Shown here: in pieces, positions 13,073 to 31,752 of the stretch
Numbering within the stretch: position 1 is the first letter of the stretch
Layout of the letters: every line of letters starts with the position of its first letter
NCBI GenBank assembly: GCA_003501665.1
Contig: DNOQ01000096.1
Coordinates: 812-36,587 of the forward strand
Length of the DNA stretch: 35,776 nucleotides
DNA from: Bacteroidales bacterium
GTDB taxonomy: Bacteria > Bacteroidota > Bacteroidia > Bacteroidales > VadinHA17
Direction: 5' to 3'
The notes under the pieces: model-generated
Told to the model about the DNA's origin: nothing
Database searches by the model: none
The model's input: only the letters and a program-made list of their open reading frames with translations
Program-made: the position numbers and the translations under genes

Positions 13073-13078
13073 TTAATT

Positions 13079-13639: not shown

Positions 13640-14027
13640 AGGGGCAATCCTTTTCCACAGGGATTTCCAGTTCCACAACGGTCAATCAGGTGAGAAATTA
13701 ATAATAGTTCTCAACACACCAAAAGACAAAGAGCCATATCTTTGCTGCAAAACAACCTCAAAACAGAAATTCAATATCGACAAAGAAGGATGCCATAGCC
13801 CAAAGAACGTCTATGTCATAAATTCAACGATCGACTGGTTTAAAGTAAAAACATGGGTGCAGTTCCATGAGCTATACGAATTTGAACCGCAGAAATTCTT
13901 ACAGGCACATTTTAAGGGTGTTTTGGAAATAAAAGGAGAATTAAAAGAAAGTACTGTAAATGCAATAAGGAACTGCATAAGGCGCTCTGAAGATGTCTCC
14001 ATATATCATCTCTCTCTATTGTCTTAA
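13632..14027 (+). CDS. Putative toxin partner of the Panacea antitoxin (PanT candidate); possibly a MazF/PemK-like fold
   Basis: 131-aa ORF translationally coupled to the DUF4065 gene. The N-terminus KGAILFHRDFQFHNGQSGEKLIIVLN...CCKTTS loosely follows the G-x-I-h..dF....G.E...RP.hVh...T pattern of MazF/PemK toxins. The fold assignment is unverified. Confidence 0.45.
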   Translation: MNKGAILFHRDFQFHNGQSGEKLIIVLNTPKDKEPYLCCKTTSKQKFNIDKEGCHSPKNVYVINSTIDWFKVKTWVQFHELYEFEPQKFLQAHFKGVLEIKGELKESTVNAIRNCIRRSEDVSIYHLSLLS

Positions 14028-14351
14028 ACACGCATGCGTCGGTGATTGAGATAATAAGAAAAAAATGTTTCACTCTTATTATCTGTACGGTGTAGGCGTG
14101 CATCGAGAGGAACTGAAGCGATAAATCTTAATTATTTTCAGAAGAAACAAACGGTATTATTAGCCTAGGCAGAAATACATAGTACTGTGAGCAGGCCACC
14201 GAGCAATGGATACCTCCCGACTGGCAATCCAGCATCTCACCGATCGACTTGGTTGCCAAAAAAGAGGATTAACTGTCGCTTCCCTGTAAAATATCGCCAC
14301 GGACGGTAGGACCAAGAGCCCTTCACACATATTCATAATTGATTGAGCAAG

Positions 14352-14786
14352 TTACCGCAGATATTCTTTTTTCCCAAAAATAATAAAGCGTCTCTTCTTA
14401 AGCTTTTCTACTCTCAGTAAAATTATTTCGATACCTTTCCCCCGCGCCTCATTCTTGAATGACTCACTGATCTCTGTATTTCGGGGATATACTATATATT
14501 TTTCTGTCGGGAAAAATGGGTAGTTATACTTATTCACCTGTTTGAGATGATCTTTTCGAGCTTGTATTGTATATTTACCCTCAACAATGATTCTTCTTTT
14601 TGAGTTGTTGTTGTCAATAGCGTAAACGTCAGGCCGCCTTTGTGTGGTCTTAGATTTTTTTTGCCGATAAATTGTACATCCTCTCAGTACACTGAGTTTT
14701 GGTAATCGCTCTTCAAATTTACGCCACTCAACTTGACTCGGTTCGGTATTGAAATTGTTCATCAATTTTGTAAACTTTTCTATCAT
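14352..14786 (-). CDS. Small PD-(D/E)xK (Mrr-cat/restriction-endonuclease-like) protein
   Basis: 144 aa with RRPDVYAID...RRIIVEGKY, a D...(D/E)xK arrangement. It is monocistronic and convergent with the R-M/TA operon. Confidence 0.5.
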   Translation of the reverse strand: MIEKFTKLMNNFNTEPSQVEWRKFEERLPKLSVLRGCTIYRQKKSKTTQRRPDVYAIDNNNSKRRIIVEGKYTIQARKDHLKQVNKYNYPFFPTEKYIVYPRNTEISESFKNEARGKGIEIILLRVEKLKKRRFIIFGKKEYLR

Positions 14787-15244
14787 GATTTCAGCTTCCC
14801 TCCTTCATCTTTCTTAGTTAATCCTCTATTGTAAGTCTAAAGTTATTATCTACTTACCCGACCTCCAGGGCAACCTTCAATAGAGCTGAATATGAGCGAA
14901 TTCTACCGATTTTTCGATAAGTGCGGGGTTTATTCCGGGAACTCTTTTTTTCGCAATATATTCGCTTTTTTCTTCGAATATCATTCACTGAGGAATACAG
15001 TAGCGTGGTCGGGCTTTATTAGCGCGGTGAAAGCTGGGCGGCGGGTCTGCACTTGTAGCAATTTCTGATAGTAACACGATGGATCTTGACGATGCTCTGC
15101 GGTCTGTTATTCTGTGAGAAGGTCATCCTGTGCTATCCACCTGATACTTGATATTAAGGTCATCTCAGCGACACTGTCGCTTTCCAAAAGCAACTGTCAC
15201 AGAAAAGGACCCCTTTACACCTCGATGCCTTCCTGATGCATGCG

Positions 15245-15272
15245 TTGACTTAGACATACCAAAGGGTATAAA
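15245..15272 (+). promoter_or_regulatory. Candidate sigma70-type promoter for the CHAT gene
   Basis: TTGACT (15245-15250), a 16-nt spacer, then TATAAA (15267-15272). It lies about 150 nt upstream of the CHAT ATG, inside a 640-bp non-coding gap. Confidence 0.35.
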
Positions 15273-15424
15273 TTTAACATAATTTTCGATTTGAACACTT
15301 CAAGAGTAAAAAATTAGTGATGCCCGATCTATTGGAGATACATTAATAAAATAATCTTGTTTCAAAAAGATTACATTTATGAAATACGTGATCCACATAG
15401 TGCTTTCAAACAATCATAGGAAAA

Positions 15425-18400
15425 ATGCCTTATAGTTCGAATGATTTTGAGATTCTGCTGGAACGAATTGTCAAGCGAAAAAGTTCTGCGGATGCTCATC
15501 AGGCTTGGGATGAATTGCATCAACTCGCGGGGAAAGAACGTCAACGATTATTTATCAAATGCATACAGCAACACGATATTGTTAACTCTAATGCTACCCT
15601 ATATTTATACCAATTTGGATATTGGTATCCTGATGAAACATTAAATATTCTTAAGACTGTGGCCCAAGATGGTAGCCTATTAGCTTGGCAAATATTATGT
15701 GCTCAGTTATCACGACAAGATATTTATAGTGATGGAGAGCGATGTCATCCCTTTAAGCCTATTGAAAATGCAGCGGAACTTGAAATAAAAACTGCTGCAG
15801 TAGATGTCATTCAGCAGTTCATTATTCAAAATCTTTTAAACTCAGATTTACGTCTTGTTTCGCAGATAGCAGAGGCTCTTTCAAGAGCACCTTCCCTAAG
15901 CGCATTAGAATTTCTTACTGACATAGTGTCTAATAGGAAATATGATACAGACCGGCGATTAATTCTATGCGTCGGCGTTAAATGCGTGGCCGAAGCACTC
16001 TATACAAAGCTCAAGCAAAGGGATTGGATTTCAATGGCACAAAAACTTGCAGTTATAGTGACAAATAATGAAGAAGATTTTAATATCCGCGGTGAATTAG
16101 CATATGTTTTCCTTTTTTTTCCGCTGCCCGAAGGAATTTCCGCTGTTCGCAGTCTCATTGAAAATACAAAAAAAACTGGCTTCGGATCTGTCTATTTGGC
16201 TGATCTTGATAATCTTCTTAAGGATTTAGAGAAATGTGACGTCACTTCTGATAACGACATTTTACCCCATTTAACTGCAGATGAAATCATCCAAGCTATC
16301 ATGGGTTTTTCAAAGAAATCGATATATAGTTACGGTCGCTGGGGCGAAGCCCTTTCCCAGGGTTCAACCCTGTGTCTAGAGACAGGAGATACCAAGACAT
16401 TCCATTACTCAAAAGAAGTTATTGATAAATGCATTGGAATCATTCATCCGTTTGATAAGGACGATCCGGAATGGTGTGATCGTTATGTAAAGCTTTTAGT
16501 CGAGGCTGTTTGTTTCAATGGACCGCCAGAAGCTATGTTTCAGTGCATAGTGGCTGGTGCAAGTCGATCATTAAATAAAGTGAAGTTATTCAATGTATTA
16601 AACTTTCTTCAATTAGCATTTAACAATATTAATAGACTTTACATCCCGTCAATTATAGAACGCTTTGGCTTGTTAGGTGAACTGGGCATCTTGTCAGGGC
16701 AGAAAGCTCAGAATGAGGGGCAAACAGATCTTGCAATTTCCTTTTACGAATTAACGGCTAAGTTAATGGAGGGTCGAATAGATGAGCATTTTGCGGGAGC
16801 GCTTATGTCTCTTGGAATATTGTATTCCACTCTGGAGGATTGGCCTAACGCTTTGACTTACTTAGAGCGGGCTCGTCCTATTCTTGTACAGATCGAAGAC
16901 CAAGAGAATTTGGCAACTTGTTTAATGGAGATTGGAGTTGCTGAACAGGTACAAGGCAACTATGAAGCATCTAGGCATCATTTAGAATCTGCTTTATCTA
17001 TTTGTGAACCACTTGAGTCTGCCACACATTTTACTGCCCTGCCTCATTGTTTATCACACCTGGCAGATTTGGGTATCGAAGACGGCTCATTATCAAAATC
17101 TGAGGCTATAGAATTGATTGATCGAGCTATTAATCTCGCAAGAGAACGTAAAGATTTTGGGTTAGAAAATTTATTGCTTCATAAAAAGGAAGATATCTTG
17201 GGCCTGTTTAAGATTAAAAATGATTTCGATCATAATGTTCGCAGGATGTACTCTCAAATTGAAGCCAGCCAAGGAGACGATTTTTGGGCTGCGGTTAATT
17301 CTGAATTACGTGAGGCATCAGAATTGGACGGTAGGGCCAATTTCCAGTTCGAAGAAATAGCGAGCGACTTAAGATATAGTGCTCTCTGTCTTTATATACG
17401 AGCCTATATTCGCTTAACCTTTGCCGAAGAGTTTGAGGTTCTACGGCATACTATTGATAATGACATAGACGTCAAAGCACCTAAGTCAGCAAATCATATT
17501 ATTAGTCGAATTATCGACATTCTTATCACCAGAGGAGATATAAATTGGGCAATGGAATTCGCTGATCGTTCCAAATCGAGGTCTTTAATTCGCTTGTGTC
17601 AGCTTTCTCGTTTTGACGTTTTATTAAACAACAAGTCATCGGTACCATCCTACCTAATAACTGAGATTAACGAAACAACGAAGCGTCTCAGCAGCCTCAT
17701 CCATTCTAAGGGCTTAAGTGACTCGGAAGAAGCAAGAAATATTCATTTACGGTTAAAGGACTTAATTTCCTATCTTCCTGCTCCAATACGTAATTCGTTC
17801 GGAATAGATCAAGCGATTAATGATTATATGACATTGCGTAGAGAACTCAAAAATATAGACGATTTCACCAAGATGACCAAAGAGTATTCAGAATCTAAGG
17901 AGTCACCTTTACTAGATTTGTATAAAGGATGGTTGCCATCAGAGACGCTTCCCGAAATAGCCTCATTTCTTAATCCCGATGAGCGCTTAATCGAATACTA
18001 CTTAGATAATGAAAATGATGGTCACATATTTATCCTTGATCCAGATGGAGTAGCACATCATGCATACCTCAATGTTTCCGAGGAAAAGCTCATCTCTCTA
18101 ATATCACAACTTATACCAAATTCCTTCGTTCTTGATAATTCGAAGGAACCCTCAGGCTGTACGGCTATGTTGAGCGAGCTTTATGATATTTTAATTCGTC
18201 CCATTAATAATTGGATTTGTTCTGACACACGCAAAGTCAAGAGATTAGTCATTGTTCCTCACGGACCTTTATTTAATCTGCCATTCGCGCCACTCTGGAA
18301 TAAAGAGCGTCGTCGTTACTTAATTGAAGACTTTGAACTGACAGTAATTCCTAACGGCGGATTTCTTCACTTATTGCAATCTTCAAAAAGACAACTGCCA

Positions 18401-19015
18401 AAAAAGTTTAAATTTGCAGGTTTCTATAATGCGTCTAACATGATGGAAGACTTACCAGAAACTGAGCGAGAGTTAAAAGAAATAATATCTATATTGTCCT
18501 CTGATTCCGAAGTCATAGGCATAGCGACAGGAAAAGAAATGACTCGCCAGCGGTTCATTCATCTTTGCAATCAAGCAGATATCATACATTATGCGGGGCA
18601 CGCAGTATTCATTCCAGATTCACCGATGGACTCCTACTTACCTCTGGCTGCTGCAGAAAGCGGTACATATGGTCATGAAGATCGGTTATCATGTAGCGAA
18701 ATGATTGAGCAATTGCATCTGAAGTCTACCATCTTTTTTCTGAGTGGATGTGAATCTGGGCGCTCAGAAATGCGTGGCCAAATGGAAATAGCTGGTTTCC
18801 TAAGAACCGCATTTTTGTGCGGAGCATCAACCGTCATATTTTCACTTTGGCCATTACCGGATACTCGTGAAACTGTATCAATTGTGAGCCATTTTTATAG
18901 AAATCTGATTTTTTCAGGTGAAAGTTGCTCCAATGCACTTCGAAATGCTATGTTATCAATGCGCAATATGCATCCCTGGTTTTGGGCTGGTTTTCAAATG
19001 TCTGGGATTCTATAG
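15425..19015 (+). CDS. Large TPR/HEAT-repeat protein with a C-terminal CHAT (caspase-like) peptidase domain
   Basis: 1196 aa. The middle region has TPR-like repeats (e.g. ISFYELTAKLMEG...ALMSLGILYSTLEDWPNALTYLERA...). The C-terminal ~300 aa carries CHAT hallmarks: LVIVPHGPLFNLPFAPLW, the catalytic His context IIHYAGHAVF and the catalytic Cys context IFFLSGCESG. Confidence 0.85.
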   Translation: MPYSSNDFEILLERIVKRKSSADAHQAWDELHQLAGKERQRLFIKCIQQHDIVNSNATLYLYQFGYWYPDETLNILKTVAQDGSLLAWQILCAQLSRQDIYSDGERCHPFKPIENAAELEIKTAAVDVIQQFIIQNLLNSDLRLVSQIAEALSRAPSLSALEFLTDIVSNRKYDTDRRLILCVGVKCVAEALYTKLKQRDWISMAQKLAVIVTNNEEDFNIRGELAYVFLFFPLPEGISAVRSLIENTKKTGFGSVYLADLDNLLKDLEKCDVTSDNDILPHLTADEIIQAIMGFSKKSIYSYGRWGEALSQGSTLCLETGDTKTFHYSKEVIDKCIGIIHPFDKDDPEWCDRYVKLLVEAVCFNGPPEAMFQCIVAGASRSLNKVKLFNVLNFLQLAFNNINRLYIPSIIERFGLLGELGILSGQKAQNEGQTDLAISFYELTAKLMEGRIDEHFAGALMSLGILYSTLEDWPNALTYLERARPILVQIEDQENLATCLMEIGVAEQVQGNYEASRHHLESALSICEPLESATHFTALPHCLSHLADLGIEDGSLSKSEAIELIDRAINLARERKDFGLENLLLHKKEDILGLFKIKNDFDHNVRRMYSQIEASQGDDFWAAVNSELREASELDGRANFQFEEIASDLRYSALCLYIRAYIRLTFAEEFEVLRHTIDNDIDVKAPKSANHIISRIIDILITRGDINWAMEFADRSKSRSLIRLCQLSRFDVLLNNKSSVPSYLITEINETTKRLSSLIHSKGLSDSEEARNIHLRLKDLISYLPAPIRNSFGIDQAINDYMTLRRELKNIDDFTKMTKEYSESKESPLLDLYKGWLPSETLPEIASFLNPDERLIEYYLDNENDGHIFILDPDGVAHHAYLNVSEEKLISLISQLIPNSFVLDNSKEPSGCTAMLSELYDILIRPINNWICSDTRKVKRLVIVPHGPLFNLPFAPLWNKERRRYLIEDFELTVIPNGGFLHLLQSSKRQLPKKFKFAGFYNASNMMEDLPETERELKEIISILSSDSEVIGIATGKEMTRQRFIHLCNQADIIHYAGHAVFIPDSPMDSYLPLAAAESGTYGHEDRLSCSEMIEQLHLKSTIFFLSGCESGRSEMRGQMEIAGFLRTAFLCGASTVIFSLWPLPDTRETVSIVSHFYRNLIFSGESCSNALRNAMLSMRNMHPWFWAGFQMSGIL

Positions 19016-19035
19016 ATGGAAAAAAACGAGTTCAT

Positions 19036-19416
19036 ATGAAAAATTCATCTGACGTGACTTTTCAAATAGCTATCGATGCTAATATTATGTCTTGTCTAGA
19101 TCTAAGAAAACGTCTGGAAGCTCTGATTTCTAAAAGTCATACCGACATTTTACTTGAAATAAGAAAACCCGAAATTAGAACCCGAGGTATAGATCCCACT
19201 ATCCTTGTCGCAACTGTAGGAGCTATTGGTGCTGGTCTTGGTGCTTTAATAACTGGGCTTTTGAAAATAGCTCAAGGGAGTTCTGCAAAAAGGATTATAA
19301 TTCAATCTCGGAAAGGAGCACGTATAGAATTCCCCGCTGATATGAAATCTGATCAAATTGATGTCTTAATAGATAAGTTAATAAAATTGGATGCTGATAA
19401 AATCATCATATCATAA
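19036..19416 (+). CDS. Small single-pass membrane protein, EACC1-like (effector-associated constant component) candidate
   Basis: I chose the ATG at 19036 (MKNSSDV...), 20 nt after the CHAT stop. The supplied ORF's upstream start at 18925 would overlap the CHAT C-terminus. 126 aa. The layout is an N-terminal soluble part (LRKRLEALI...LEIRKPE), one Gly/Ala-rich TM helix (ILVATVGAIGAGLGALITGLL), then RIIIQSRKGARIEFPADM...IDVLIDKL. From memory, this layout matches the EACC1 family that Aravind and co-workers predicted next to CHAT/trypsin effectors. Confidence 0.6.
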   Translation: MKNSSDVTFQIAIDANIMSCLDLRKRLEALISKSHTDILLEIRKPEIRTRGIDPTILVATVGAIGAGLGALITGLLKIAQGSSAKRIIIQSRKGARIEFPADMKSDQIDVLIDKLIKLDADKIIIS

Positions 19417-19887
19417 CTTCAACACATTAGCCCTAATGAAACTGGGGATGCTGTTGAAAAGTTAATTGTCATATAGAATTACGTCATTAACCTGCATGCC
19501 GTCGACTTGGCACTATTGCCAGACACGGGATACAAGATATCGAAGAAGACATTTTAAAAAAATAGACCCAATTCCGGTGGCACTACTAATCTATTTCCGC
19601 TTATAACCTGCATAATTCAAGAAATACTCGCTCGTGAGAAGTACTGTGAGGATGTTATTCTGCGCTGTTCACCTTCTATATAGGTGTAAGTAAACACTTG
19701 ACATATCTTGTAATTTTTAGGAAATTACTGGTAGTAATATATATGCTTTCTTTATTTTTCGGGCAAAAGAAGATGATAAATTCCTGCACGTGGGATATAT
19801 TTATAGCTCCTATTGCACAACGCAAATATTCCACGATAAATCTGCGATCGAGGGGCAAAGAGATGGAAGCAATTGAAGTGGCAGAAA

Positions 19888-21306
19888 ATGGATAAGATCA
19901 GGGCTGAAAGAATCGCAAAAGAGGTTATCGGGTCAGAGATCGGTGGCTGGAAAGTTCTTGAGCTTATAAATTATGGGAAATCTGCTGTCGTTCTTAAAGC
20001 GGAGAAGTCGGCTGCTCTGAAAATCTTTGATCGCGAACTAGTTGAAAGATTTGGCGAGGCTGCGCAGGAAGAGCGAATCAATCGCGAGTTGTCTTTGCGT
20101 GGTAAGCAACATGAGAACCTTGTCGAAATTTTCGATGGAGGTAAATGCCCTCGCACGGGGTATTACTTTATTGTAATGACATATATCGATGCGCCAAATT
20201 TGGCAAGCGTTTTAAATGATATTCCACGTGAACAAATTTGGTCGATCATTTCGCAAGTCGCTCGAGCTGCTCATTTTCTTGAAAGTCTTGAAATTGCCCA
20301 TAGAGATATAAAACCAGAGAATATAGCTATCAGCATAGATTATCGAAAGGCAGTATTGCTGGACTTGGGTGTCATTCGTCCATTCAAGGTTGAGAGTTTA
20401 ACAGATGCCGAGCAACGAGTCTTTCTTGGGACACTACGCTATAGCTCACCCGAGTTTCTGTTTCGCAAAGAAGAAAATAGTTTAGAGGGATGGCGGGCTT
20501 TAACATTTTATCAATTAGGGGCTGTTCTCCATGATATGATTATGCAAAGGTGTTTGTTTGATGAGTTTTCTGATCCATTTGCCATGTTAGTAGAAGCAGT
20601 TAAACACGAGACTCCAGTTATCAACGCTACTGATGTTTCACCTGATTTGGTATTGCTCGCAAGAAATTGCCTGAGCAAACCAGTTGACTTGCGACTCCGC
20701 CTATTAAAATGGGAAGATTTTGAACCAAGGGCTACCAGTTCTACTTCTGCCAGCGAGGCTAGGGAAAGAGTTAGGAAAAGAAAAACATATTATAAAGAGC
20801 AAGCAAAACAAAGCTATGATGAAGACATAGAAAGGGAGATAAGGGCAACCAAACAAATAATTGACGAAATGAGCACGAAGATCCAGGCTGTTATAAGTCG
20901 AGAATGCATTAGCAGTGGCTTTTTCCCTCCCATCGAAATCCACGATTTCCTGCAAGGATCTTCGCCCAAAGTAGCGAGTTTTTTACTTTGCATCTCCAGT
21001 TCCGAGGAATATGGTTTAAAAAATGTGATTTCCATTCTTTTTTTGATAGAGCTTTTAGAGCAGAAAGATAGAATTGTCAGCCTTAATTATGTTTCAGGCT
21101 TGTATAATAAAAACATAGACGTGGAAGGATTCAAAGAGCAAAGGTCAACAACTTTTTTTGAAGGTGCCTTTGAGGAAGCTGTCATAAAGAATAAGCTTCG
21201 CGATATACTATACCTTCTATTTGATAAGGCGCAACAAAGCGAGGGAATGAAGTCAAATGCGGAAATACTCAGAGAACCTGAATGGATAACTATTGATGAG
21301 CCATAA
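19888..21306 (+). CDS. Hanks-type Ser/Thr protein kinase with a ~190-aa uncharacterised C-terminal domain
   Basis: Subdomain II Lys lies in AALKIF and the alphaC Glu in INRELSL. The catalytic loop is HRDIKPENI. The DFG equivalent is DLG and the activation/P+1 segment is GTLRYSSPE. The supplied ORF starts at a TTG at 19873; I prefer the first ATG at 19888 (MDKIR...). I recognise no motif after about residue 290. Confidence 0.8.
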   Translation: MDKIRAERIAKEVIGSEIGGWKVLELINYGKSAVVLKAEKSAALKIFDRELVERFGEAAQEERINRELSLRGKQHENLVEIFDGGKCPRTGYYFIVMTYIDAPNLASVLNDIPREQIWSIISQVARAAHFLESLEIAHRDIKPENIAISIDYRKAVLLDLGVIRPFKVESLTDAEQRVFLGTLRYSSPEFLFRKEENSLEGWRALTFYQLGAVLHDMIMQRCLFDEFSDPFAMLVEAVKHETPVINATDVSPDLVLLARNCLSKPVDLRLRLLKWEDFEPRATSSTSASEARERVRKRKTYYKEQAKQSYDEDIEREIRATKQIIDEMSTKIQAVISRECISSGFFPPIEIHDFLQGSSPKVASFLLCISSSEEYGLKNVISILFLIELLEQKDRIVSLNYVSGLYNKNIDVEGFKEQRSTTFFEGAFEEAVIKNKLRDILYLLFDKAQQSEGMKSNAEILREPEWITIDEP

Positions 21307-21320
21307 CATACTTTAAGCAA

Positions 21321-22481
21321 ATGAACGAAACGTGGTGGGTTGGACCTGAACAATTAGATGTTGATCAAAAGACTATTATTTCTTTGCCTTTAGATGGAAG
21401 CCATCTCATTATTGGGCCGCCGGGGTCAGGTAAAACTAATCTATTACTTCTTCGTGCAAATTACACATTTCTTTCGGGCAGTAGAAATATATCGGTCGTC
21501 GTATTTACGAAGACTCTGCGGGATTTCATTGCCTCCGGTGCGAGGCATTATGCCTTTCCCATGGAAAAAGTGACCACTTGTCGCAAATGGCAATTGGATC
21601 TCTTATATGAATATGGCGAGAGAGTTGTTTTGTCAGAAGGTAAATTCAACGAACAAAGAGCATTCATTGTTGCCAAAGTGAATGAATTAATAACAACAAA
21701 AAAACTTGAAAATATATACGATGCTTTGTTTTTGGATGAATCTCAGGATTATACTCCCGAGGAAATTATGATCTTCAAAAGATTGGGGAAAGTAGTATTC
21801 GCTGTTGCTGATTCGAGGCAGAAAATCTATCAAGGCAAAGATTCCATTGAGACGGTTAAGAGCGCCGTGGATTATACCCACCCTCTAAGGTTTCATTATC
21901 GGAACGGCCTCGCCATCTGCAAGTTTGCGGATGCCATCGCAAAAGACTCCCCCGATTATGAGAAGCTCGCGGAAACATCAAATTACGATGAAGTTGCAAG
22001 ACCTTCCTCTGTTGAAGCCTTTAGCTGTGCTGATCTGAATGAGCAAGCCGCAAGAATTATCGAGAAATTGAAAATCCAATTGAAAGCTTATCCCGATGAA
22101 ATGCTATGCGTCATTTGTCCAAAGAAGGAAGACCTTTTAGTCATATGGGAAGTGGTCCAGGAATCAGAAATTGCAGCACAGTGCATTTTACACGGCATCG
22201 ATGGTTATATTTCACTGAGCACAACAACTTGTATATTCTTTTGTTCCTTACATTCTGTCAAAGGCTTAGAATCTCGCGCTGTTCATATAGCAGGATGTGA
22301 GTTTCTAAAACGTTTTCCGCATAATAGGAATATGGCATTCACAGCAGTGACACGAGCTAAGACGTCGTTATCTCTTTATTACTCCAGTGTTTTGCCCGGA
22401 TATCTTGAACAAGCTATACAGTTACTTCAACCTTTGCCCGATCTACCTGAAATGAAAGATGTTTTTGGAGGCAGAAAATAA
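21321..22481 (+). CDS. Minimal UvrD/PcrA-like SF1 helicase (core motifs only, 386 aa)
   Basis: Walker A is IIGPPGSGKTNLLLLRA. Motif Ia is VVVFTKTLRDF and motif II is LFLDESQDY. Motif III-like is AVADSRQKIY. Motif V is SLHSVKGLESRAVHI and motif VI is FTAVTRAKTSLSLYY. It starts 14 nt after the kinase stop. Confidence 0.75.
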   Translation: MNETWWVGPEQLDVDQKTIISLPLDGSHLIIGPPGSGKTNLLLLRANYTFLSGSRNISVVVFTKTLRDFIASGARHYAFPMEKVTTCRKWQLDLLYEYGERVVLSEGKFNEQRAFIVAKVNELITTKKLENIYDALFLDESQDYTPEEIMIFKRLGKVVFAVADSRQKIYQGKDSIETVKSAVDYTHPLRFHYRNGLAICKFADAIAKDSPDYEKLAETSNYDEVARPSSVEAFSCADLNEQAARIIEKLKIQLKAYPDEMLCVICPKKEDLLVIWEVVQESEIAAQCILHGIDGYISLSTTTCIFFCSLHSVKGLESRAVHIAGCEFLKRFPHNRNMAFTAVTRAKTSLSLYYSSVLPGYLEQAIQLLQPLPDLPEMKDVFGGRK

Positions 22482-23858
22482 ATGTGGACAAAAAATACTA
22501 GTCGCGGCGAATTACTTGATCTATTGCAGGCTGAGCGACCCCTCTCAATGAGAAATTCATCTCAGTATGATTTGCTGAATTCAGATTCGCATAGTGACCT
22601 ACAAATTGCTTGGAAAGAAAAACCTTCACAGGAGTCTGCACTACCAAGGGCGATTATAGTACCTCATAACAAGAAAAGAGATTTTTTAGCATGGGCCCTA
22701 ACATATCTAACAAATTTCAGACCATTTACAGCTTACTTTAGAATATTTACGAAAGAAGACGTTGAGAAGTATACGATAGAACAGGAGCCATCATTAGGTA
22801 AACTAGAAAGCGTATGCCTTGGCATTATTTTGGGAGAAGCTGCAACCTATTTGGATACGCATGATATTCGCCAGTTATCTCCAAGCGGTTGTTCAAGGAC
22901 TTTCTCCTTTGCTATGTCACGAGCCTTAGCTTTAGGTTTGTTAAAAAATGAGGGGAATGCTGATATGGCAAATGCATGGCAGATGGCGCGGCACCTAACA
23001 AATCAGCCCAAGTTAAATCTGAATGTTGAGTATCTTCTGATCCCGTGGTCCGTAATTCTACTGCTCGCTGATATCGTTGGTATTGAGAAGGATCATCCAC
23101 CACAAAACATATTAGACGCGTGTCGCGATCTATTCAACAAAGGAGATATTGAAGATTCTAACTGGATGACTTTTGTCAGTACTTTCCCAGAGCATAAAGA
23201 TGTTCTAACACTAATGCGAGGTACACGTGAAGAAAGAGTAGTAACTTTTGAGAAGATGTTCAATATGTTGCTGCCTATGAAAAACAAAGATGAGACAACA
23301 TGTGCTTTTTTGTGTGGCTACTTGGCCAGCTTAATAGCGCCAGGCGCTATTGATCACCTGAACTTGTTAAGACCATATGTTCGAGAGTTACCGTCCATTT
23401 TATTATGGTATGGTCTTTGTACAGGTTTGCGCAATCATTCAAGCATGAAGAACTACTCGCTAGGACTGGGTCGTCGTATCCTTCGGGATTTGCTCCAATA
23501 CGAGTTCTTTATCGATCGACCTAGATGTGATATTTCGCTTGCTGAATTAGAATTGTTAGTCGTCGATAATAAGATGACTTTAGATTTTCGTACAGGGCGC
23601 TCGGGACAAATGGAAATTGAAATTGCCCCTTGTGTTACAACCACGGTGAAATGGCCGCCACCGAGCGACCATCAGCAAGAATTGCACATGAGGAGTGAAA
23701 TTGAGTATGAAATTGCAGATCTCGAGGCTGATGTCACTTTGGCTCTCGCTAAAATGGAAAATGTTAGACGTAGATTATCACACCTAACCCAAATACGCGC
23801 ATCAAAAAGTACTGATATAGAACAGAAATATAGAAAAGGCAAGAAAAAAGGTCGGTAG
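22482..23858 (+). CDS. Hypothetical 458-aa protein, third gene of the kinase-helicase operon
   Basis: The ATG follows the helicase stop directly (taaATG). It looks predominantly helical, with a C-terminal coiled-coil-like, Lys-rich tail (EIADLEADVTLALAKMENVRRRL...KYRKGKKKGR). I recognise no catalytic or family motif. Confidence 0.7.
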   Translation: MWTKNTSRGELLDLLQAERPLSMRNSSQYDLLNSDSHSDLQIAWKEKPSQESALPRAIIVPHNKKRDFLAWALTYLTNFRPFTAYFRIFTKEDVEKYTIEQEPSLGKLESVCLGIILGEAATYLDTHDIRQLSPSGCSRTFSFAMSRALALGLLKNEGNADMANAWQMARHLTNQPKLNLNVEYLLIPWSVILLLADIVGIEKDHPPQNILDACRDLFNKGDIEDSNWMTFVSTFPEHKDVLTLMRGTREERVVTFEKMFNMLLPMKNKDETTCAFLCGYLASLIAPGAIDHLNLLRPYVRELPSILLWYGLCTGLRNHSSMKNYSLGLGRRILRDLLQYEFFIDRPRCDISLAELELLVVDNKMTLDFRTGRSGQMEIEIAPCVTTTVKWPPPSDHQQELHMRSEIEYEIADLEADVTLALAKMENVRRRLSHLTQIRASKSTDIEQKYRKGKKKGR

Positions 23859-23992
23859 GAAATAGGAAAAGTGCGGCAAAAAATGCCAGAACTAAAAAGA
23901 GACTTGCCTTGAGTCTTGCAGTCAACTCTTGGTTTCTGTCTTGTAATAATTTTCGAATGTAATCCGCAGAATAATCTGGAACCCTGTGGGTG

Positions 23993-24067
23993 GTCTGGTA
24001 GCCAGGGTTCATTGCTGAACCCCAGCCCCATAAGAACCGTGCTTGTCAGTTTCCCGACACACGGCTC
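23993..24067 (-). mobile_element. Group II intron 3' remnant: ribozyme domain V plus domain VI with a bulged branch-point A
   Basis: On the minus strand, 24067->24034 reads GAGCCGUGUGUCGGGAAACUGACAAGCACGGUUC. This is 34 nt with an AGC triad, a GAAA tetraloop and a 2-nt bulge, versus the canonical domain V GAGCCGUAUGCGAUGAAAGUCGCACGUACGGUUC. A 4-nt linker follows, then a hairpin (GGGCUGGGGUUCA-GCAA-UGAACCCUGGCU) with an unpaired A at 23999, 7 nt before a terminal AC at 23994-23993. No RT ORF or recognisable domain I is present upstream. Confidence 0.65.
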
Positions 24068-24412
24068 AAGCCTTTCATAAGCTGCTTTCAGCAGCCGGTT
24101 CCACAACCTCCATTTGTGCATGTGTGGTAATTATAGAGAATCATGGTGTCAGACTTGTTTATTGCAATTTGCTGAATTTGGGGACTTAATCTGTACTTCG
24201 CTTATGCAATGTCAAGCATGGAGACGCTTTTAGCCTCGGCTAATCCGTTATGATGGAAAGACATGAGTTTTAATTATTTCCGAATTAACATCCTACATAA
24301 AAACGCGCACTCATGTTTGTACTTTTCCCCTCTAAAAAAAACGATTATGCCAACTCTCAGGGGATATTACGGCGGGACTCCTGAATTGCTCATAGAGTCC
24401 CGCCGTTTGTTG

Positions 24413-26386
24413 TTATATAAGAGACGGCTGAAGAGGCTTTTTCCTGGTGGTAGATTTCACTACATTGATCTTCAAAGTAAAAACAACATTCTGTAACCAC
24501 TTCTTGCCGGGAGCCTCAGGATGTATCTTGTAATATTCCATATCATTGAGCATCCCGATAAACCTTTCAGCATCCTTTAATTGATAAGGGAAGTAAGGAG
24601 GGATGGCGGATGCTTTTTGAAAGAAGTACTTCAAGAGAGCGGATCTTTGGGCAATTTTGGTTATGGCAATATCTGTTTCGCCTTTATTGGGCTGCTGAAC
24701 TTCCTCTGCCTCTCCATTGACTTCCAGTTGGTTCGCCTGACTACCAATTGCTGCTGCCTCATTAGTGATTCCTTCGGCTATCTGGGCGTCCTTGTATCGC
24801 ACTTCTTTCGCCATTTTAATGGACTCCCATTTCATTATGAAGTCTTTTATGATTCTTTCCGGGAATTCAGGCATGACTCCAAACGGAATGATCAGGGAAA
24901 GCAGAATGCACCCTTTGTCGACTTCCGGAAAGTCAATGACCATGAGTTTTCTCGCTACCTTCATATAACCGATATAGTCACTGGGGGAGAAAAAGTAGCG
25001 GGCAATCAGGATACCCTCTTTGGTAAGGGAATACAAACCGCTCTCTTTCCTGTTCAGAATGTGACAGGCCCTGAGGAAATGCAGGTTCTTTTCTACGGAT
25101 CCGGCCACTTTCTGTCCTGTTGTAAGAGAAGCAGCGTAGGTCGTGCTCAACGCCTGGATGAGATCCTGCTTTGATGCCGGATTCAGGGAAAGAATGGTAA
25201 GCACCATTGATTGAACCGGGAGAGGGAGAGACTTTGCAAGAGATAGTTTCTTTGCATTAAACAGCTCGATTTTGTCTCCCAGGATATATACCATCGCTTC
25301 AGGTTTACCCCGCCCTGCCCTGCCGAACATTTGATCGACATCGGTTTTTTCCAGAAAATATCCCCCTCTTCGCGTGCCGCACACAACTACTATATCCGCC
25401 GGAGTGTTTATCCCCTGGGAAAGCGTGTTCGTGGCAAGCAGAGTCTTTAATGTACCAGCATTGAATTCCACGACAAGCCTGTCCCTCTCCTTATCTTCAA
25501 GGTCTGCACAATGCATTGGCGTTACAAGGGACTCGCTGAGACAATAGCCAGCAGCTTTTGTAGGAACAAAGATAAGGACGTTGTCTTCCTGATGCTTCAA
25601 AAGTATATCTTTTAAAACTTTCAGCCTCAGGGAGTCCCGGTTATAGATGTGTCCCGAAATAGTGGGTGCAACACCTGCCGGAAGTCTTCTGGGAGCTGGC
25701 TGGGCATTGATATCATCAGGGACATGCACTTCGCTTACATGGATGAGCGTTTTTCTGTATTTCGAAACAAACATGTCGGCGTTCAGTAAAGCAGCCAGTT
25801 CTTTCTTATTGGGAAATGTACCGGACATGAGCAGGACTTTCCCTCCGCTTCTTATATGGACAGTCAAGGCCACATCCAGATTGCCTCCTCTGGACGGCTC
25901 AAGAAGGTTATGCGCCTCGTCTATGATCAGGAGCCCTGCTCTTGTCCACTCCTTGCCTGATCTCACTGCACTTAGAAATCCTTCGGGTGTTGTGACCACA
26001 AAGAACTTGTCGGCAACGGTCTTGTCGGAATTGGTGCTCAAACCGACGATCTTCGCGCCCCATATCCCGACAGACTCCTGATATAAGCTTTTGACAAGTT
26101 CACGGGTAGGAGCGGTGAGTATTATTTTCTGGCCCTCGTCGAGAAAACATCTCGATGCGATATACGCAAGGGCAGTTTTTCCTGTTCCTGTGCCGCTTTC
26201 GATGACACAGTGCCTGTCTGGTCTATAATTGTCCTTGAAGCAGCTCTGTAACGGATTCAGCGTTTCAAAGGGAATATCAGGGTCGAAGCCACATGGATAT
26301 TCACCCGTTACTTCGAAAAAGAGCGGAGCATCCTTTGTTGGCTGTCCAAACTTTTTCGTGAACCACTTCCTGAAGAAACTGATCAC
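24413..26386 (-). CDS. SF2 DEAD/DEAH-box helicase, Ski2/Hel308-like, with a winged-helix/ratchet-like C-terminal region
   Basis: Motif I is ESGTGTGKTALAY and motif II is LLIIDEAHNL. Motif III is MSGT and motif VI is QMFGRAGRG. There is a ~270-aa C-terminal extension. It uses a GTG start with a GGAGGT RBS 10 nt upstream. Confidence 0.8.
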   Translation of the reverse strand: MISFFRKWFTKKFGQPTKDAPLFFEVTGEYPCGFDPDIPFETLNPLQSCFKDNYRPDRHCVIESGTGTGKTALAYIASRCFLDEGQKIILTAPTRELVKSLYQESVGIWGAKIVGLSTNSDKTVADKFFVVTTPEGFLSAVRSGKEWTRAGLLIIDEAHNLLEPSRGGNLDVALTVHIRSGGKVLLMSGTFPNKKELAALLNADMFVSKYRKTLIHVSEVHVPDDINAQPAPRRLPAGVAPTISGHIYNRDSLRLKVLKDILLKHQEDNVLIFVPTKAAGYCLSESLVTPMHCADLEDKERDRLVVEFNAGTLKTLLATNTLSQGINTPADIVVVCGTRRGGYFLEKTDVDQMFGRAGRGKPEAMVYILGDKIELFNAKKLSLAKSLPLPVQSMVLTILSLNPASKQDLIQALSTTYAASLTTGQKVAGSVEKNLHFLRACHILNRKESGLYSLTKEGILIARYFFSPSDYIGYMKVARKLMVIDFPEVDKGCILLSLIIPFGVMPEFPERIIKDFIMKWESIKMAKEVRYKDAQIAEGITNEAAAIGSQANQLEVNGEAEEVQQPNKGETDIAITKIAQRSALLKYFFQKASAIPPYFPYQLKDAERFIGMLNDMEYYKIHPEAPGKKWLQNVVFTLKINVVKSTTRKKPLQPSLI

Positions 26387-26643
26387 TGACTAATAAACCT
26401 CCATTTCATAAGCTTCCTCCTGTTTGTAATTAAGTAAATGGCAGCATTATGCATGATATTTATCTGCCTCTCTGTCACTTTTTGAATCTCTGAGAGTATT
26501 TCATGGAATAACCTCTTTGCTGAGATACCGTGGTTGGTTTAATAAAGAGGGGGAAGAGGAAGATGGGGTTGTCTTCCTCTTCCGAGGGGGGAGTGTGAGC
26601 CCTGTGAAGCCAGTCTTCTGCCAACTCCACAGAGCAAACGGCC

Positions 26644-27492
26644 TTAAGGGTATATCTGACTCTGGATATTCTTCGGCAATTCCGGGGTCATGGGTGAATC
26701 TGTCGTCATGGCTTGCGAATCACTTGTTCGCGCTGTGTGTATCGGCTCTACCTGGGCTTTCAACCCGTTTCCCGAATTGACGATGTCTACGGTTGCCCTG
26801 ACCACGACATCTCTGACAACTTCCTCCAGAGCAGTGCCCTTTAATTGGCTGAAAATCCCGCCAAAGCCCACTCCATGCCATCCGGCGCCAGCTCCTATAC
26901 CAAGACCTGACTTCTGATTGTTTGCCTCATATGACTTTGTGAAGGTGACTTTCCCGGAGTTAACATCTATTATCCTGATATCCATGCCAACGATAGCCCT
27001 GGTCTTCTTGATATCCACAGCGCTCAATACCGGGATAATGCCGATACCAAGGTTGGTATTTGTGGTCTCCATTGTCAGAGAGGTAACAGCCCCTCCCAAA
27101 AGGAAGTCAGCAGTTTCAAGTTCGATCTTCTTCCCCGCGAGAGCCATTTCCTGCTTCAGTTCCTCTAGAGACTCTCTCTCAAGAATTTCAAAGCACCCTG
27201 TCTGCTTCAAAGCGGATATGAGCATATCTCCTATTCCCTGTCCAATCCCTTCGTAGGCAGGTTGACCTGTTAAAGATGCAATCTGCTGAAGGAATGAAGC
27301 TGTAGGCGTTTTGGGATTAATGCAGGAAGCCGCCTTACAGGTCACTTTTCCGAGTGCAATCTTGCCGATGGGCTTCTCGCACTTTGGAACCTGCGCTGTC
27401 TTTTCGGTTGTCTCTGTCTCTGCGGCTGATACTGACACAGAAAATACGCCCAGCATCGCAGCAGCAATCAAAATAGTGATGATTTGTTTCAT
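26644..27492 (-). CDS. CsgG/HfaB-family outer-membrane secretion channel protein with a signal peptide
   Basis: The N-terminal signal peptide is MKQIITILIAAAMLGVFSVSVSAAE. Family-like segments are GIGQGIGDMLISALKQTGCFEILERESLEELKQE, ADFLLGGAVTS and AIVGMDIRIIDVNSGKV. GGAGG RBS. Confidence 0.7.
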   Translation of the reverse strand: MKQIITILIAAAMLGVFSVSVSAAETETTEKTAQVPKCEKPIGKIALGKVTCKAASCINPKTPTASFLQQIASLTGQPAYEGIGQGIGDMLISALKQTGCFEILERESLEELKQEMALAGKKIELETADFLLGGAVTSLTMETTNTNLGIGIIPVLSAVDIKKTRAIVGMDIRIIDVNSGKVTFTKSYEANNQKSGLGIGAGAGWHGVGFGGIFSQLKGTALEEVVRDVVVRATVDIVNSGNGLKAQVEPIHTARTSDSQAMTTDSPMTPELPKNIQSQIYP

Positions 27493-27609
27493 GATATGTC
27501 CTCCTTTTGATGTTTGTTTTTAAATAGGTATTACCCTTCACTCCTGATTCATTCTCCTGATGTTGATTTTTTGAGCCAATTTTGGAATGAGCAGTATGAA
27601 GAGAGGGAA

Positions 27610-27834
27610 TTAAAGCCAGGTGAAGGTCGGATATCCCGTGGGAAGGCCTTTGTGGGTACCGCAGTGTTTGCGTACTATTTTTCCACGGCATACTTTACAG
27701 CTGTGACCTGCGGTGCAGTCGTTCTTTTCCATGCACTTCATAGTCTCGCAGCCGCACGGAAAAGTAAAAAGCTTTACGCTTGCCTGTTCAAACGGTACTA
27801 CCGGTTTTTGTGTTAATGTGACAACAGTTTCCAT
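27610..27834 (-). CDS. Small Cys-rich protein (7 Cys in 74 aa)
   Basis: There is a strong RBS (AGGAGGatttaaaactATG). The sequence is ...FTFPCGCETMKCMEKNDCTAGHSCKVCRGKIVRKHC.... It lies directly upstream of the CsgG-like gene on the same strand. Confidence 0.5.
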   Translation of the reverse strand: METVVTLTQKPVVPFEQASVKLFTFPCGCETMKCMEKNDCTAGHSCKVCRGKIVRKHCGTHKGLPTGYPTFTWL

Positions 27835-27930
27835 AGTTTTAAATCCTCCTGTTTTTTAGTCGTGTTTTTTAAATTGTGTTTTTTGTCAATTAGCAGAAAG
27901 AGGGTAAAGTGTTGCGGATGTATGGACTCT

Positions 27931-28056
27931 TTACAGACGATAAAAGTTGATAGTTTCTATATCGACAACGATCTCCGCAATTGCTTTCGCTGTGGCGGCT
28001 GAGACATGAGGCATATTCTCCTTGATGGTTAATTCGATAGCTTCCACTTTCGACAT
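27931..28056 (-). CDS. Small ORF (41 aa), hypothetical
   Basis: Hand translation gives MSKVEAIELTIKENMPHVSAATAKAIAEIVVDIETINFYRL. An AAGGAG RBS precedes the ATG at 28056. It is below the size cut-off of the ORF track. I prefer it to the overlapping 92-aa ORF 27890..28168, which has no RBS. Confidence 0.4.
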   Translation of the reverse strand: MSKVEAIELTIKENMPHVSAATAKAIAEIVVDIETINFYRL

Positions 28057-28168
28057 AAACAGATCTCCTTGTAGTTATATCTCTGTAACTTTCACCAAAG
28101 GCTACTTGTTTGAAACTGACGCATGCCGAAGATAAACAGCATGTGAATGATCTTCCTCTGGAAAACAT

Positions 28169-28342
28169 CTATTTATTCACCGATTCCTTGAGCAGTTCGT
28201 CGGGAATTTCAATCACATTCAAGGAGGGTTCGTTGCGTTTGCGGTTAAACAGCATCTTTACGATATCGTCGACACTGCTTAAGCTGTAAACTCTCTCCCC
28301 CTTCTGAACCTTGATTGAACCGGTCAAATTCTTGACTGACAT
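28169..28342 (-). CDS. Small ORF (57 aa), hypothetical
   Basis: I chose the internal ATG at 28342 (MSVKNLTGSIKVQKGERVYSL...) because GGAGGTG precedes it. The supplied ORF extends to 28384. Confidence 0.45.
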   Translation of the reverse strand: MSVKNLTGSIKVQKGERVYSLSSVDDIVKMLFNRKRNEPSLNVIEIPDELLKESVNK

Positions 28343-28536
28343 AGCACACCTCCAAAAAAGAAAAAGGGCATCACGATTTTTCACCGAATGGCTACTTTCG
28401 TAATGCCCCTAAAAAAGAGACTCGGGCTTGCAACAGACGTAAATGTGATTATCCTGAAAAAAAATGAAAGGTAGAGGAAGTAAATGTTTGGTTGGAGATC
28501 GGGCAGGAAGGAACAGTATGCTGCTCTTTACGGCTT

Positions 28537-28743
28537 TTAAGCGGAAAGGGCTTTCCTGACAGTAGTAAGGACGTTGTTGCCCTCTTTTCTGAAAGAAAAG
28601 TGCAGGCCCCCCATGACGGTATAAACCGGGATTCCGTGTGGAAAGAATTGAACAAGATTCGCCGAATTCACGTTTACGCTCACCGGCCTGTTGATGTTGA
28701 TACCTCCAAAGAATTTCGTGAGTACGGATGTTGCTGTTTTCAT
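28537..28743 (-). CDS. Small ORF (68 aa), hypothetical
   Basis: I chose the internal ATG at 28743 (MKTATSVLTKFFGGININRPVSVNV...) because GAGGTG lies 6 nt upstream. The supplied ORF extends to 28809. Confidence 0.4.
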   Translation of the reverse strand: MKTATSVLTKFFGGININRPVSVNVNSANLVQFFPHGIPVYTVMGGLHFSFRKEGNNVLTTVRKALSA

Positions 28744-29632
28744 AACGTTCACCTCAATCTTTGAATTTGTTCCGCCCGGAACAAGCGGAAGGATTTCATG
28801 GCTGCTCATCGCTTTTTGTTTAGTGTCAGAGCTTAGAACTGACTGTGGAGAAAACGCGAAACGGTTAGTCCATGTGCAGACCGTTTCGGGTTCCTGAATG
28901 ATTAAAGGAAGGATTAATGGGGATCCGGACAGGCAGGTTTGTCAGCACTTGAAGGTCGGAGAAAATGTGAAACACCAGTTGATTCTTGACATTGAATTTG
29001 TAGAGCAAAAAAATACGACCAAACAGCGATCGAGAGCTGAGACAAACTGCCTTGTCTCTTCCCGACAGGAAAACCGATGTTAGTTACGTTTGCAACAATA
29101 GGACTCTGAAATATTGTGCTTTAAGGCAATGATACTCTGCGAAGCGGCAAATCGGGGGGATCCTTTTCCCTTTGAAGGAAGAGAAAAAACGGGATGTCAG
29201 AAATTGGGGACTTGTTGTTTTAAGCCATTTTAGGCGGGATTCGAAAAACTTGTCTCAAGCTGTCGGCTTCTGAGGCCTCTCTGGATACTTCTATGCAGGA
29301 TAAGATGTGAAAATTACCTCAATTATAATGAGAATAGCCCATACGGTCAAGGCAATTAAAGCCTAACCAACTGAAATACAAGCATAATTTAGTGTTTCTG
29401 TCTCAGCCCTATCGCATCTGGAAAAAACAAAAAACTTTAAGAACGTCACAACTTTGCGAAATACAGCAAAATCAAGATGTTATAGACATAAAAGACCGTC
29501 TTGTCTGAAGTCTCAGGACTCTCAAAAATTCAAATGTAAACACGCTACCTGAGATCAGGTATATATTCGACATTCATTTTTTTCTCTAACCTGCTGATAT
29601 CCATAGATTAATCGGGATTAACAGAACAGGAC

Positions 29633-29692
29633 GGCTTACGTGGTTTCTTACGACGTTCCTTACGAGGTTTCTTATAGGGGTTCTTACGGCAA
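29633..29692. repeat. Five tandem 12-bp iterons, consensus TTCTTACGnnGt
   Basis: The head-to-tail units are GGCTTACGTGGT / TTCTTACGACGT / TCCTTACGAGGT / TTCTTATAGGGG / TTCTTACGGCAA. The CTTACG cores fall at 29635, 29647, 29659, (29671 variant CTTATA) and 29683. The array lies about 125 nt upstream of the ParB-like gene. Confidence 0.8.
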
Positions 29693-29817
29693 GGTCAATA
29701 CGGTTGCAGGACAGAAAACCGGACGCGAAATGATTTCGCCCGGTCCAGTGGGAATTCTGCCAATAAAAATACGCGTAATACTCTTATATCAATAAAGCGG
29801 AAAAGGAGGAGTTCGAA

Positions 29818-30780: not shown

Positions 30781-30792
30781 CGCTGATCTGAA

Positions 30793-31737: not shown

Positions 31738-31752
31738 TCCGCTGATATTATC

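Follow-up and report, generated by a model that had tools for sequence, protein, structure and literature searches.

A three-gene locus encoding a kinase, a minimal UvrD-like helicase and a protein without fold match as a candidate mobile defence cassette

Introduction

In the antiphage system Gabija, a helicase of the UvrD family in superfamily 1 (SF1) is a core defence component, which is encoded in a tight operon with a partner protein. PD-T4-6 and Stk2 are Hanks-type kinases with all catalytic residues; after sensing infection, they phosphorylate many cellular or phage proteins. Hachiman, Lamassu, retrons, CBASS and Avs combine a variable module with an NTP-dependent core, which is invariant and serves as sensor or motor, in a tight operon, and such operons are found in defence islands. 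These traits, those of the last group at the level of concept, recur in three consecutive genes on a stretch of 35,776 nucleotides from a Bacteroidales bacterium (VadinHA17; assembly GCA_003501665.1, contig DNOQ01000096.1, positions 812 to 36,587 of the forward strand), the whole of which is called the window. The genes encode a Ser/Thr kinase, a minimal UvrD-like helicase and a third protein named P3, and together they are referred to as the trio. The trio is regarded as an unnamed system and is, in our judgement, probably a self-contained mobile cassette with a helicase-P3 core and a swappable output, for which we infer a defence function against phages or mobile elements.

For the search for known systems, PADLOC-DB 2.0.0 (2023), NCBIfam release 20 (June 2026, including the antiphage families) and Pfam were used. 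PADLOC-DB contains no model for P3 and gave only domain-level matches for the kinase and the helicase core. In NCBIfam, nothing in the trio exceeded a cut-off and the matches were far below threshold. No description of the trio was found in the freely searchable part of the full-text literature, including papers on new defence systems. Thus, PADLOC, NCBIfam and the searchable literature agree with the original prediction, made from the letters of the window, that no named system has this composition.

Gene structure of the trio

The original prediction had described three co-directional genes with a 14-nt gap, an ATG of P3 abutting the preceding stop codon and about 460 bp of non-coding DNA upstream, and the list of open reading frames (ORFs) agrees. 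The ORFs are located on the + strand at 19873-21306, 21321-22481 and 22482-23858 and encode 477, 386 and 458 amino acids (AA); 14 nt separate the kinase stop from the helicase ATG and 0 nt the helicase stop from the P3 ATG. The kinase gene was confirmed, but TTG 19873 is probably not its start. The kinase homologues begin at ‘MDxxRAxR’ in the alignment and, therefore, the true start is probably ATG 19888 (472 AA), five codons inside the listed TTG ORF. The sequence GAAGTGG, 6 nt ahead of this ATG, is a possible weak Shine-Dalgarno motif. The genes are:

19888-21306, + strand: gene 1, Ser/Thr kinase with a C-terminal adaptor-like domain (472 AA from the ATG; the listed ORF starts at TTG 19873 and has 477 AA)
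21321-22481, + strand: gene 2, minimal SF1 UvrD/HelD-like helicase, 386 AA (Pfam UvrD_C_2, UvrD-helicase and AAA_19)
22482-23858, + strand: gene 3 (P3), 458 AA, unknown fold, invariant partner of the helicase (ORF list)

Conservation of the trio across loci

For the comparison, 73 loci were gathered (16 exact-protein look-ups, 12 species-representative genomes, 46 metagenomes and 3 annotated plasmids). Gene order was counted using tblastn with the window proteins over the first 69 loci, six of which have P3 at a contig edge. Co-occurrence in other genomes had been named as a check on the original prediction, and it was found: the helicase is directly upstream of P3 in 63/63 informative loci. 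Where the upstream DNA suffices, the first gene encodes a kinase with the C-terminal domain (CTD) of gene 1 in 32 loci, a protein named ALT in 12 and another or no protein in 7. The order of the trio is kept in all kinase-type loci annotated by Pfam or RefSeq (11/11). Of the unit of kinase, helicase and P3 that had been proposed, the helicase-P3 pair is fixed, but the kinase is not obligate and is one of several first genes.

Between the helicase stop and the P3 start, the distance is 0 or -1 nt in 32/50 loci; between the kinase stop and the helicase start, it is -4 nt in 14/22. Such junctions are typical of a translationally coupled operon. Because the identical gene order recurs across dozens of unrelated genomes, the arrangement is far beyond chance. 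Sequence identity is 25-44% for P3, 22-31% for the CTD, 38-59% for the helicase and 45-57% for the kinase domain; the quicker divergence of P3 and the CTD compared to helicase and kinase domain would fit recognition or interaction surfaces.

Seven nearby genes of the window (from the Panacea antitoxin to CsgG, 13079-27492) were tested and have no homologue in 69 other loci and, therefore, the conserved unit comprises exactly three genes. Larger systems including the TPR-CHAT gene, the small ORF following it or the downstream DEAD helicase were rejected, as none of these recurs in the 69 loci. Since P3 is preceded by the helicase in all informative loci while the first gene varies, helicase and P3 are the invariant core, and the first position is a slot for defence-type modules.

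Variable first gene

ALT is a conserved protein of ~290 AA, which occurs in 12 loci, mostly of Bryobacterales and Acidobacteriaceae, and matches PDC-S32 of PADLOC at 3.5e-9. In one locus (L024), the first gene encodes a 498-AA P-loop ATPase with a PDC-M28C match of 1.7e-16. In another (L001), the P-loop ATPase is frameshifted into ORFs of 129 AA and 330 AA (5825-8000), the helicase lacks the N-terminal ~64 residues including Walker A, and P3 is intact. The latter locus was considered as a decayed kinase locus, which was rejected, as the cassette is of the ATPase type, with its genes frameshifted and the helicase shortened. In two further loci (L041 and L042), the first gene encodes 423 AA, with a match of 4.8e-28 between residues 11-225 and the Toprim effector domain found in type I-C retrons.

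Two independent ALT-type cassettes (L043, 2331-5000; L049, 319-2319) have ietAS components directly upstream (IetS 5.9e-59, IetA 1.2e-55). ALT-type cassettes and ietAS may be recurrently associated.

Kinase and its C-terminal domain

Pfam Pkinase matches residues 31-275 of gene 1 with an E-value of 6e-22 (78.7 bits; cut-off 31.7). The original prediction that the catalytic residues are complete was confirmed by their invariance in 29 homologues (K50, E72, H143-R144-D145, K147, N150, D164, G166, T187, Y190, S191, P193 and E194). In the translation, the motifs read AALK (K50), HRDIKPEN (D145), DLG (D164) and SPE. With the VAIK Lys, the αC Glu, HRD, the DFG-type Asp and the APE-type motif all present, gene 1 is classified by sequence as a Hanks-type (eukaryotic-like) Ser/Thr kinase. 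More than 1,115 homologues were found at E ≤ 1e-20 and more than 120 full-length ones at E < 1e-113. The parts of gene 1 are, in residue numbers counted from the TTG:

19963-20697, + strand: kinase catalytic domain (Pfam match, residues 31-275)
20020-20022, + strand: codon of K50
20305-20307, + strand: codon of Asp145 of HRD
20362-20364, + strand: codon of Asp164 of DLG
20722-21303, + strand: CTD, proposed adaptor to the helicase-P3 core (residues 284-477; AlphaFold2 and CTD HMM)

About 190 AA are located C-terminal to the Pkinase match and constitute the CTD. Modelled alone with AlphaFold2, it reaches a predicted local distance difference test (pLDDT) value of 90.4 and is composed, in this order, of a long helix, a sheet of five strands and another helix. 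The domain could not be placed in the original prediction either, and the Foldseek search against PDB structures gave no fold match (best E 0.09). A hidden Markov model (HMM) of the CTD also detects the Toprim protein of L041 and L042 (E 2.7e-17, residues 261-387; hhalign probability 97.4%). The CTD is, therefore, a portable domain common to two enzymatic heads, kinase and Toprim. For the ALT and ATPase first genes, the presence of a concealed CTD was rejected, as the hhalign probability is < 1% compared to the 97.4% of the positive control. A homologue search with an alignment of the CTD only returned zero sequences and, hence, gave no survey of further CTD fusions.

Helicase

The matches of gene 2 to UvrD-helicase, AAA_19 and UvrD_C_2 of Pfam are weak but consistent. 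As predicted originally, the SF1 motifs are kept; the Q-motif, Walker A (GPPGSGKTN), DESQD (DExxD), motif III, YR, KGLE and TRAKT are ≥ 95% conserved in 30 distinct helicases. Two of them have the following positions:

21414-21437, + strand: Walker A, with the codon of Lys38 at 21432-21434
21735-21749, + strand: DESQD

The protein had also been called minimal, which holds: at 386 AA, there is room for essentially just two RecA-like domains. The only sequence relative in the PDB is HelD/helicase IV (6wvk, E 2e-5). In NCBIfam, no helicase family reaches its cut-off (HelD_BACSU 36.5 bits vs. 419, uvrD 15.3 vs. 1144, PRK11773 16.9 vs. 965), and the HelD_BACSU match (1.3e-9) covers the C-terminal RecA-like domain. 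PADLOC matched the helicase core of C3a187 (2.4e-22), GajB (best 1.3e-11) and, weakly, mad8 (2.8e-4).

P3

P3 has no match in Pfam, PADLOC or NCBIfam, and its fold matches neither PDB structures (best E 0.21, TM ~0.1) nor the predicted viral structures of BFVD, in accordance with the original prediction of a protein without recognisable motif. Among PDB sequences, zero relatives were found. A word-indexed search found 85 relatives, and a profile search 1,351 representatives of clusters at 50% identity, 818 of which have E ≤ 1e-30; nearly all relatives from the profile search are 450-480 AA long. The AlphaFold2 model (pLDDT 86.3, predicted TM score 0.83) is mostly α-helical, with a small N-terminal β element, a large helical domain, a β hairpin and a C-terminal helix of ~60 residues with a basic tail. 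Across 26 diverse homologues, 17 columns are invariant, including E119, E250, D350, E355, R87 and R332.

Two assignments of P3 were rejected. A membrane protein was suggested by chance matches in Foldseek (transporters, GPCRs); the 26 homologues have no conserved hydrophobic segment and P3 is predicted to be soluble. The name MmgE/PrpD, which UniRef gives to a Gemmata homologue (P0065), was treated as a naming artefact, as none of the 85 homologues has a Pfam match and no PrpD fold was matched.

In two plasmid records, namely Cupriavidus pMTS3 (L021, 7001-8248) and a Ralstonia megaplasmid (L023, 7001-8230), the annotated ‘hypothetical protein’ downstream of the helicase starts ~430-520 nt inside the tblastn match of P3. 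Here, P3 is either shortened by mis-annotation or disrupted.

Genomic context and distribution

The window is chromosomal (rpoC, 1284 bits; cut-off of TIGR02386 963.5). Within it, the trio is part of an island of lower GC content (0.36-0.42 vs. 0.44-0.49 in the flanks), which also contains a Type III restriction-modification (R-M) system, a SocA/Panacea antitoxin pair, TPR-CHAT and a Hel308/HamB-like helicase. Hence, the placement of the locus among R-M, toxin-antitoxin (TA) and CHAT genes, as originally noted, was found again with Type III R-M, Panacea and TPR-CHAT. In at least 11 loci, known defence systems are located at most ~9 kb away, which is a raw count without genomic background. Besides those of the window, they comprise a Type ISP R-M system in one locus, an ABC-3C-type system accompanied by DUF4276 and MqsA in another, a SPARTA-type system, a Type II R-M pair with PemK, a cluster of SNF2, an MmeI-like methyltransferase and a helicase, as well as DruE (1.9e-263), IetS, IetA and PtuA, i.e., components of Druantia, ietAS and Septu; DISARM-like systems are also among the neighbours. 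On a conjugative R. leguminosarum plasmid, the trio is found near a Hachiman system disrupted by an insertion sequence (IS).

In a Geobacteraceae locus (L018, 6181-12224), the trio is flanked by an 88-AA DUF2326 fragment on one side and, on the other, by a 576-AA DUF2326 gene belonging to an ABC-3C-type system (SMEK_N/CTD10, MC6, DUF2326). This cassette may have been inserted into, or recombined beside, the ABC-3C-type system.

One copy is cargo of a Tn7-like transposon and others adjoin IS elements. Plasmid copies were found on Cupriavidus pMTS3, the conjugative R. leguminosarum plasmid and the Ralstonia megaplasmid; RefSeq names their products protein kinase, ATP-binding domain-containing protein and hypothetical protein. 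In the window, a search for flanking repeats of a mobile cassette gave just short two-copy matches of chance quality. The association with plasmids, Tn7-like cargo and IS elements, together with TA genes as frequent neighbours, would also suit a cassette serving the mobile elements themselves, either as an addiction or TA-like module with the kinase as a HipA-like toxin or as a weapon between elements. We consider this quite unlikely. The majority of the copies is located on chromosomes without a visible surrounding element, and known addiction modules do not resemble a unit of three genes and ~4 kb that includes an ATP-dependent helicase. A phage origin was rejected, since neither 50,697 phage records nor 2.9 million viral contigs (IMG/VR) yielded a P3 relative, and the same result speaks against a function for mobile elements. 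Furthermore, association with mobile elements is typical of defence systems, too, and does not discriminate between the explanations.

The carriers belong to at least seven phyla and include Planctomycetota, Acidobacteriota, Bacillota, Thermodesulfobacteriota, Myxococcota, a metagenome-assembled genome of Ignavibacteria, and Pseudomonadota (Alpha- and Betaproteobacteria). A pattern scan was positive for 12 of 185,579 representative genomes, which is a lower bound and still rare. The flanks are not conserved and differ in every locus. Housekeeping contexts would have spoken against the original prediction; the flanks are variable and often contain defence or mobile genes, but four loci (L017, L020, L071 and L073) have housekeeping neighbours only. 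A housekeeping operon for signalling or repair, in which a kinase-regulated helicase acts in DNA repair or in recycling of RNA polymerase with P3 as accessory protein, would agree with those loci that have metabolic or housekeeping neighbours only, with HelD/helicase IV as the nearest characterised relatives of the helicase, and with a uvrD-like gene adjoining the trio on the Ralstonia megaplasmid. Nevertheless, it is highly improbable given the rarity of the cassette, its patchy occurrence over distant phyla without conserved synteny, the replacement of the first gene by nuclease-type and other defence-type modules, the repeated adjacency of known defence systems, and a HelD score of 36.5 bits against a cut-off of 419. 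Both the addiction-module and the housekeeping explanation are much less likely than those assuming defence.

Conserved operon, patchy phyla, variable flanks and, as a raw count, proximity to known systems were all found, which are the features of a candidate system in the defence-island approach. The distribution is that expected of a horizontally transferred defence cassette and not of a housekeeping operon. The interpretation of the locus in the original prediction, a candidate defence system, is supported.

Proposed function

Within the defence explanation, a specific model is put forward tentatively. The cassette could be an immune platform with a surveillance core of an SF1 helicase and P3 as a new fold, into which kinase or Toprim effectors are plugged by a new adaptor domain, acting in the window by phosphorylation-based abortive infection. 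Helicase and P3 would be co-translated and form the invariant core, presumably as a complex, which would spend ATP on inspecting nucleic acid, e.g., intermediates of phage replication or recombination or DNA ends. The protein of the first position would be the output module, here a Hanks-type kinase tethered to the core through its α+β CTD. When an invader is sensed by the core, the kinase would be released or activated and would phosphorylate host and/or phage proteins. The infection would thereby be halted, probably because growth is arrested or the infection aborted. Elsewhere, this core would be combined with a PDC-S32-like protein, a P-loop ATPase or, on the adaptor that the kinase also has, a Toprim nuclease domain.

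Several observations weigh against this model or against defence in general. The proximity to known defence systems is a count and no formal enrichment, and four loci have housekeeping neighbours only, as described above. P3 as sensor or scaffold is a guess, because the protein has no recognisable domain or fold. The Toprim-CTD fusion is represented by one sequence type only (two near-identical contigs), and the adaptor idea cannot be general, because the ALT and ATPase first genes have no CTD. Three loci (L007, L036 and L063) carry helicase and P3 without a first gene. If these are functional, an effector must be inside the core, which fits better to the assumption that the cassette has the same defence function with P3 as an effector driven or licensed by the helicase and the first gene as a regulator or accessory effector. 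The kinase, for instance, might phosphorylate the helicase or P3 and thereby hold it off or switch it on.

For P3 as effector, it can further be stated that both ORFs are intact in the three loci without a first gene, that loss affects the first gene but never P3, and that E119, E250, D350, E355, R87 and R332 are located on the confidently modelled helical domain and are compatible with an active site. Nonetheless, we regard this explanation as rather unlikely. Kinase (PD-T4-6/Stk2-type) and Toprim (retron I-C) are effectors in known defence settings, and known modular systems swap the effector. Neither sequence nor fold comparisons linked P3 to a nuclease, protease, NADase or pore-former, and the protein is not membrane-embedded. 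Finally, the three loci share one arrangement beside a divergently oriented SPARTA-type system (short prokaryotic Argonaute 1.5e-164, TIR-APAZ 8.9e-61) and may represent one lineage, in which the first gene was displaced by this system.

If the cassette with the helicase-P3 core and swappable output protects against phages, the immune repertoire of bacteria would gain a new family, comprising ~1,350 P3 clusters at 50% identity. In general type, this family would belong to a known kind, the modular defence operons containing a helicase. Its carriers are mainly soil and sediment phyla that have been little studied and in which known systems are under-sampled. Should the model be true, a helicase sensor would be linked directly to protein phosphorylation, a pairing not described so far, and functions would be assigned to P3 and the kinase CTD, both of which lack known fold relatives and would each define a family of their own. 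The exchange of kinase and Toprim on the same adaptor would be a natural experiment on effector exchange between immune systems.

Upstream region and other features of the window

The region ahead of the kinase was assigned as follows:

19417-19887, + strand: upstream non-coding region, presumed promoter and 5’ untranslated region (456-471 nt without a credible gene)

It contains no ORF > 65 AA and none with homologues. The promoter was not located, because promoter-like hexamers (e.g., 19773-19801) are no more common than in shuffled sequence (8 found vs. 12.2 expected). Predictions of promoter and terminator were dropped, as they did not exceed the shuffled expectation.

On the - strand at 23993-24069, 135 nt past the P3 stop codon and convergent with P3, domain V/VI of a group II intron was detected (Rfam RF00029, 59.3 bits; gathering score 40), with 77% identity in blastn to the 3’ ends of group II introns of E. 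coli plasmids. It looks like a 3’-terminal intron fragment, because neither domains D1-D4 nor a reverse-transcriptase ORF were found nearby. The 149-AA ORF covering this element (23672-24121, - strand) is probably spurious. Further downstream, a 657-AA DEAD/Hel308-like helicase of superfamily 2 (SF2) is convergent with the trio (24413-26386, - strand; partial HamB matches, 2.9e-15), followed by a CsgG-family lipoprotein gene; no HamA/DUF1837 partner of this helicase is present in the window.

Upstream of the trio, a TPR-CHAT protein (caspase-like protease) of 1,196 AA is encoded at 15425-19416 (+ strand; CHAT E 2.4e-49). An ORF of ~126 AA with a glycine-rich hydrophobic stretch overlaps or trails it (19036-19416, + strand). 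Neither has a model in PADLOC or NCBIfam, and neither recurs beside the trio elsewhere; the two possibly form a conflict module of their own that is based on a protease. A Type III-like R-M pair is located at 8568-14027 (+ strand) and comprises an 876-AA ResIII helicase with a C-terminal match to a TnsA-like endonuclease and a 625-AA methyltransferase (MTase_III 7.6e-63). It is directly followed by a 186-AA protein with a SocA/Panacea antitoxin domain and an overlapping 131-AA unknown, which are likely a TA pair.

At 6114-7088 (- strand), an unusual 324-AA fusion of an HNH endonuclease (PtuB-like, ~1e-9) and a HIT-family hydrolase (ThsC-like, 2.5e-8) adjoins radC, dut and nrd genes. The gene rpoC (β’ subunit, 1,320 AA) is part of the region 29818-35715 (+ strand), where it follows a ParB/Noc-like gene and a 314-AA protein of no family and not rpoB, which is an unusual order. 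Upstream of this region, ~2.3 kb are without a large ORF (27493-29783).

Comparison with known systems

Compared to Gabija, neither the trio nor the adjacent genes match GajA, the OLD-family ABC ATPase with Toprim nuclease, in PADLOC, and P3 is unrelated and without ATPase or Toprim motif. The helicase has ~386 AA, whereas GajB has ~500-650 AA, and the GajB match aligns residues 121-271 of 386 to positions 201-358 of the profile of 612, which indicates general SF1 homology only. One cassette variant resembles Gabija in having a Toprim domain in its first gene; however, it is without the OLD ATPase and nearer to the retron I-C effector, and the kinase is the dominant first gene.

Hachiman consists of HamA (DUF1837) and HamB, whereas the helicase of the trio is SF1 UvrD-like and not SF2 Ski2-like, and the window contains no DUF1837 protein. 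In contrast to Lamassu, CBASS, Avs and retrons, the trio is without SMC or STAND ATPase, P3 appears to be a new fold, and PADLOC indicates no sequence relationship. BREX type 2/Pgl differs, too, as BREX_PglW reaches 25.5 bits against a cut-off of 990 and no gene like the PglX methyltransferase or PglZ is present in the window. For MADS with its eight genes mad1-8, antiphage_MADS6 reaches 49.3 bits against 460, mad6 of PADLOC matches over the kinase domain only (1.9e-23), and other mad genes are absent. Unlike in the TerY-P triad, no vWA or PP2C domain is present in the operon or its neighbours.

The top PADLOC match of the helicase, C3a187 (‘NERD+UvrD’), aligns residues 9-352 to positions 194-541 of the profile of 559, but its NERD nuclease domain is absent in the trio and it has no counterpart of P3. 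Gene 1 also matches C3a189 (‘kinase’) at 5.4e-12; C3a189 has 840 AA, aligns over the kinase domain only and again has no P3 counterpart. According to the adjacent accession numbers, kinase and UvrD-like helicase may be neighbours in this candidate set, too. The UG/Abi paper mentions neither model in its main text. Their accession range lies among Cas models, and they may, as an unconfirmed guess, represent accessory clusters of CRISPR type III.

HelD/helicase IV is the sole relative of the helicase by sequence with a solved structure; however, the helicase of the trio is half as long, is without the N-terminal and clamp-arm domains, and its genomic behaviour is entirely different. It is also below the cut-offs of the UvrD/PcrA/Rep families, and 386 AA leave no room for the full set of domains 1A, 1B, 2A and 2B.

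The top PADLOC match of gene 1 is PD-T4-6 (1.7e-28), and automated annotation with PADLOC might give the gene this label and overlook the system. Only the kinase domain takes part in the match (residues 24-274 of 477), while the CTD is specific to the family described here. Moreover, PD-T4-6 and Stk2 are single-gene systems, whereas this kinase precedes helicase and P3 in 11/11 annotated contexts of the kinase type.

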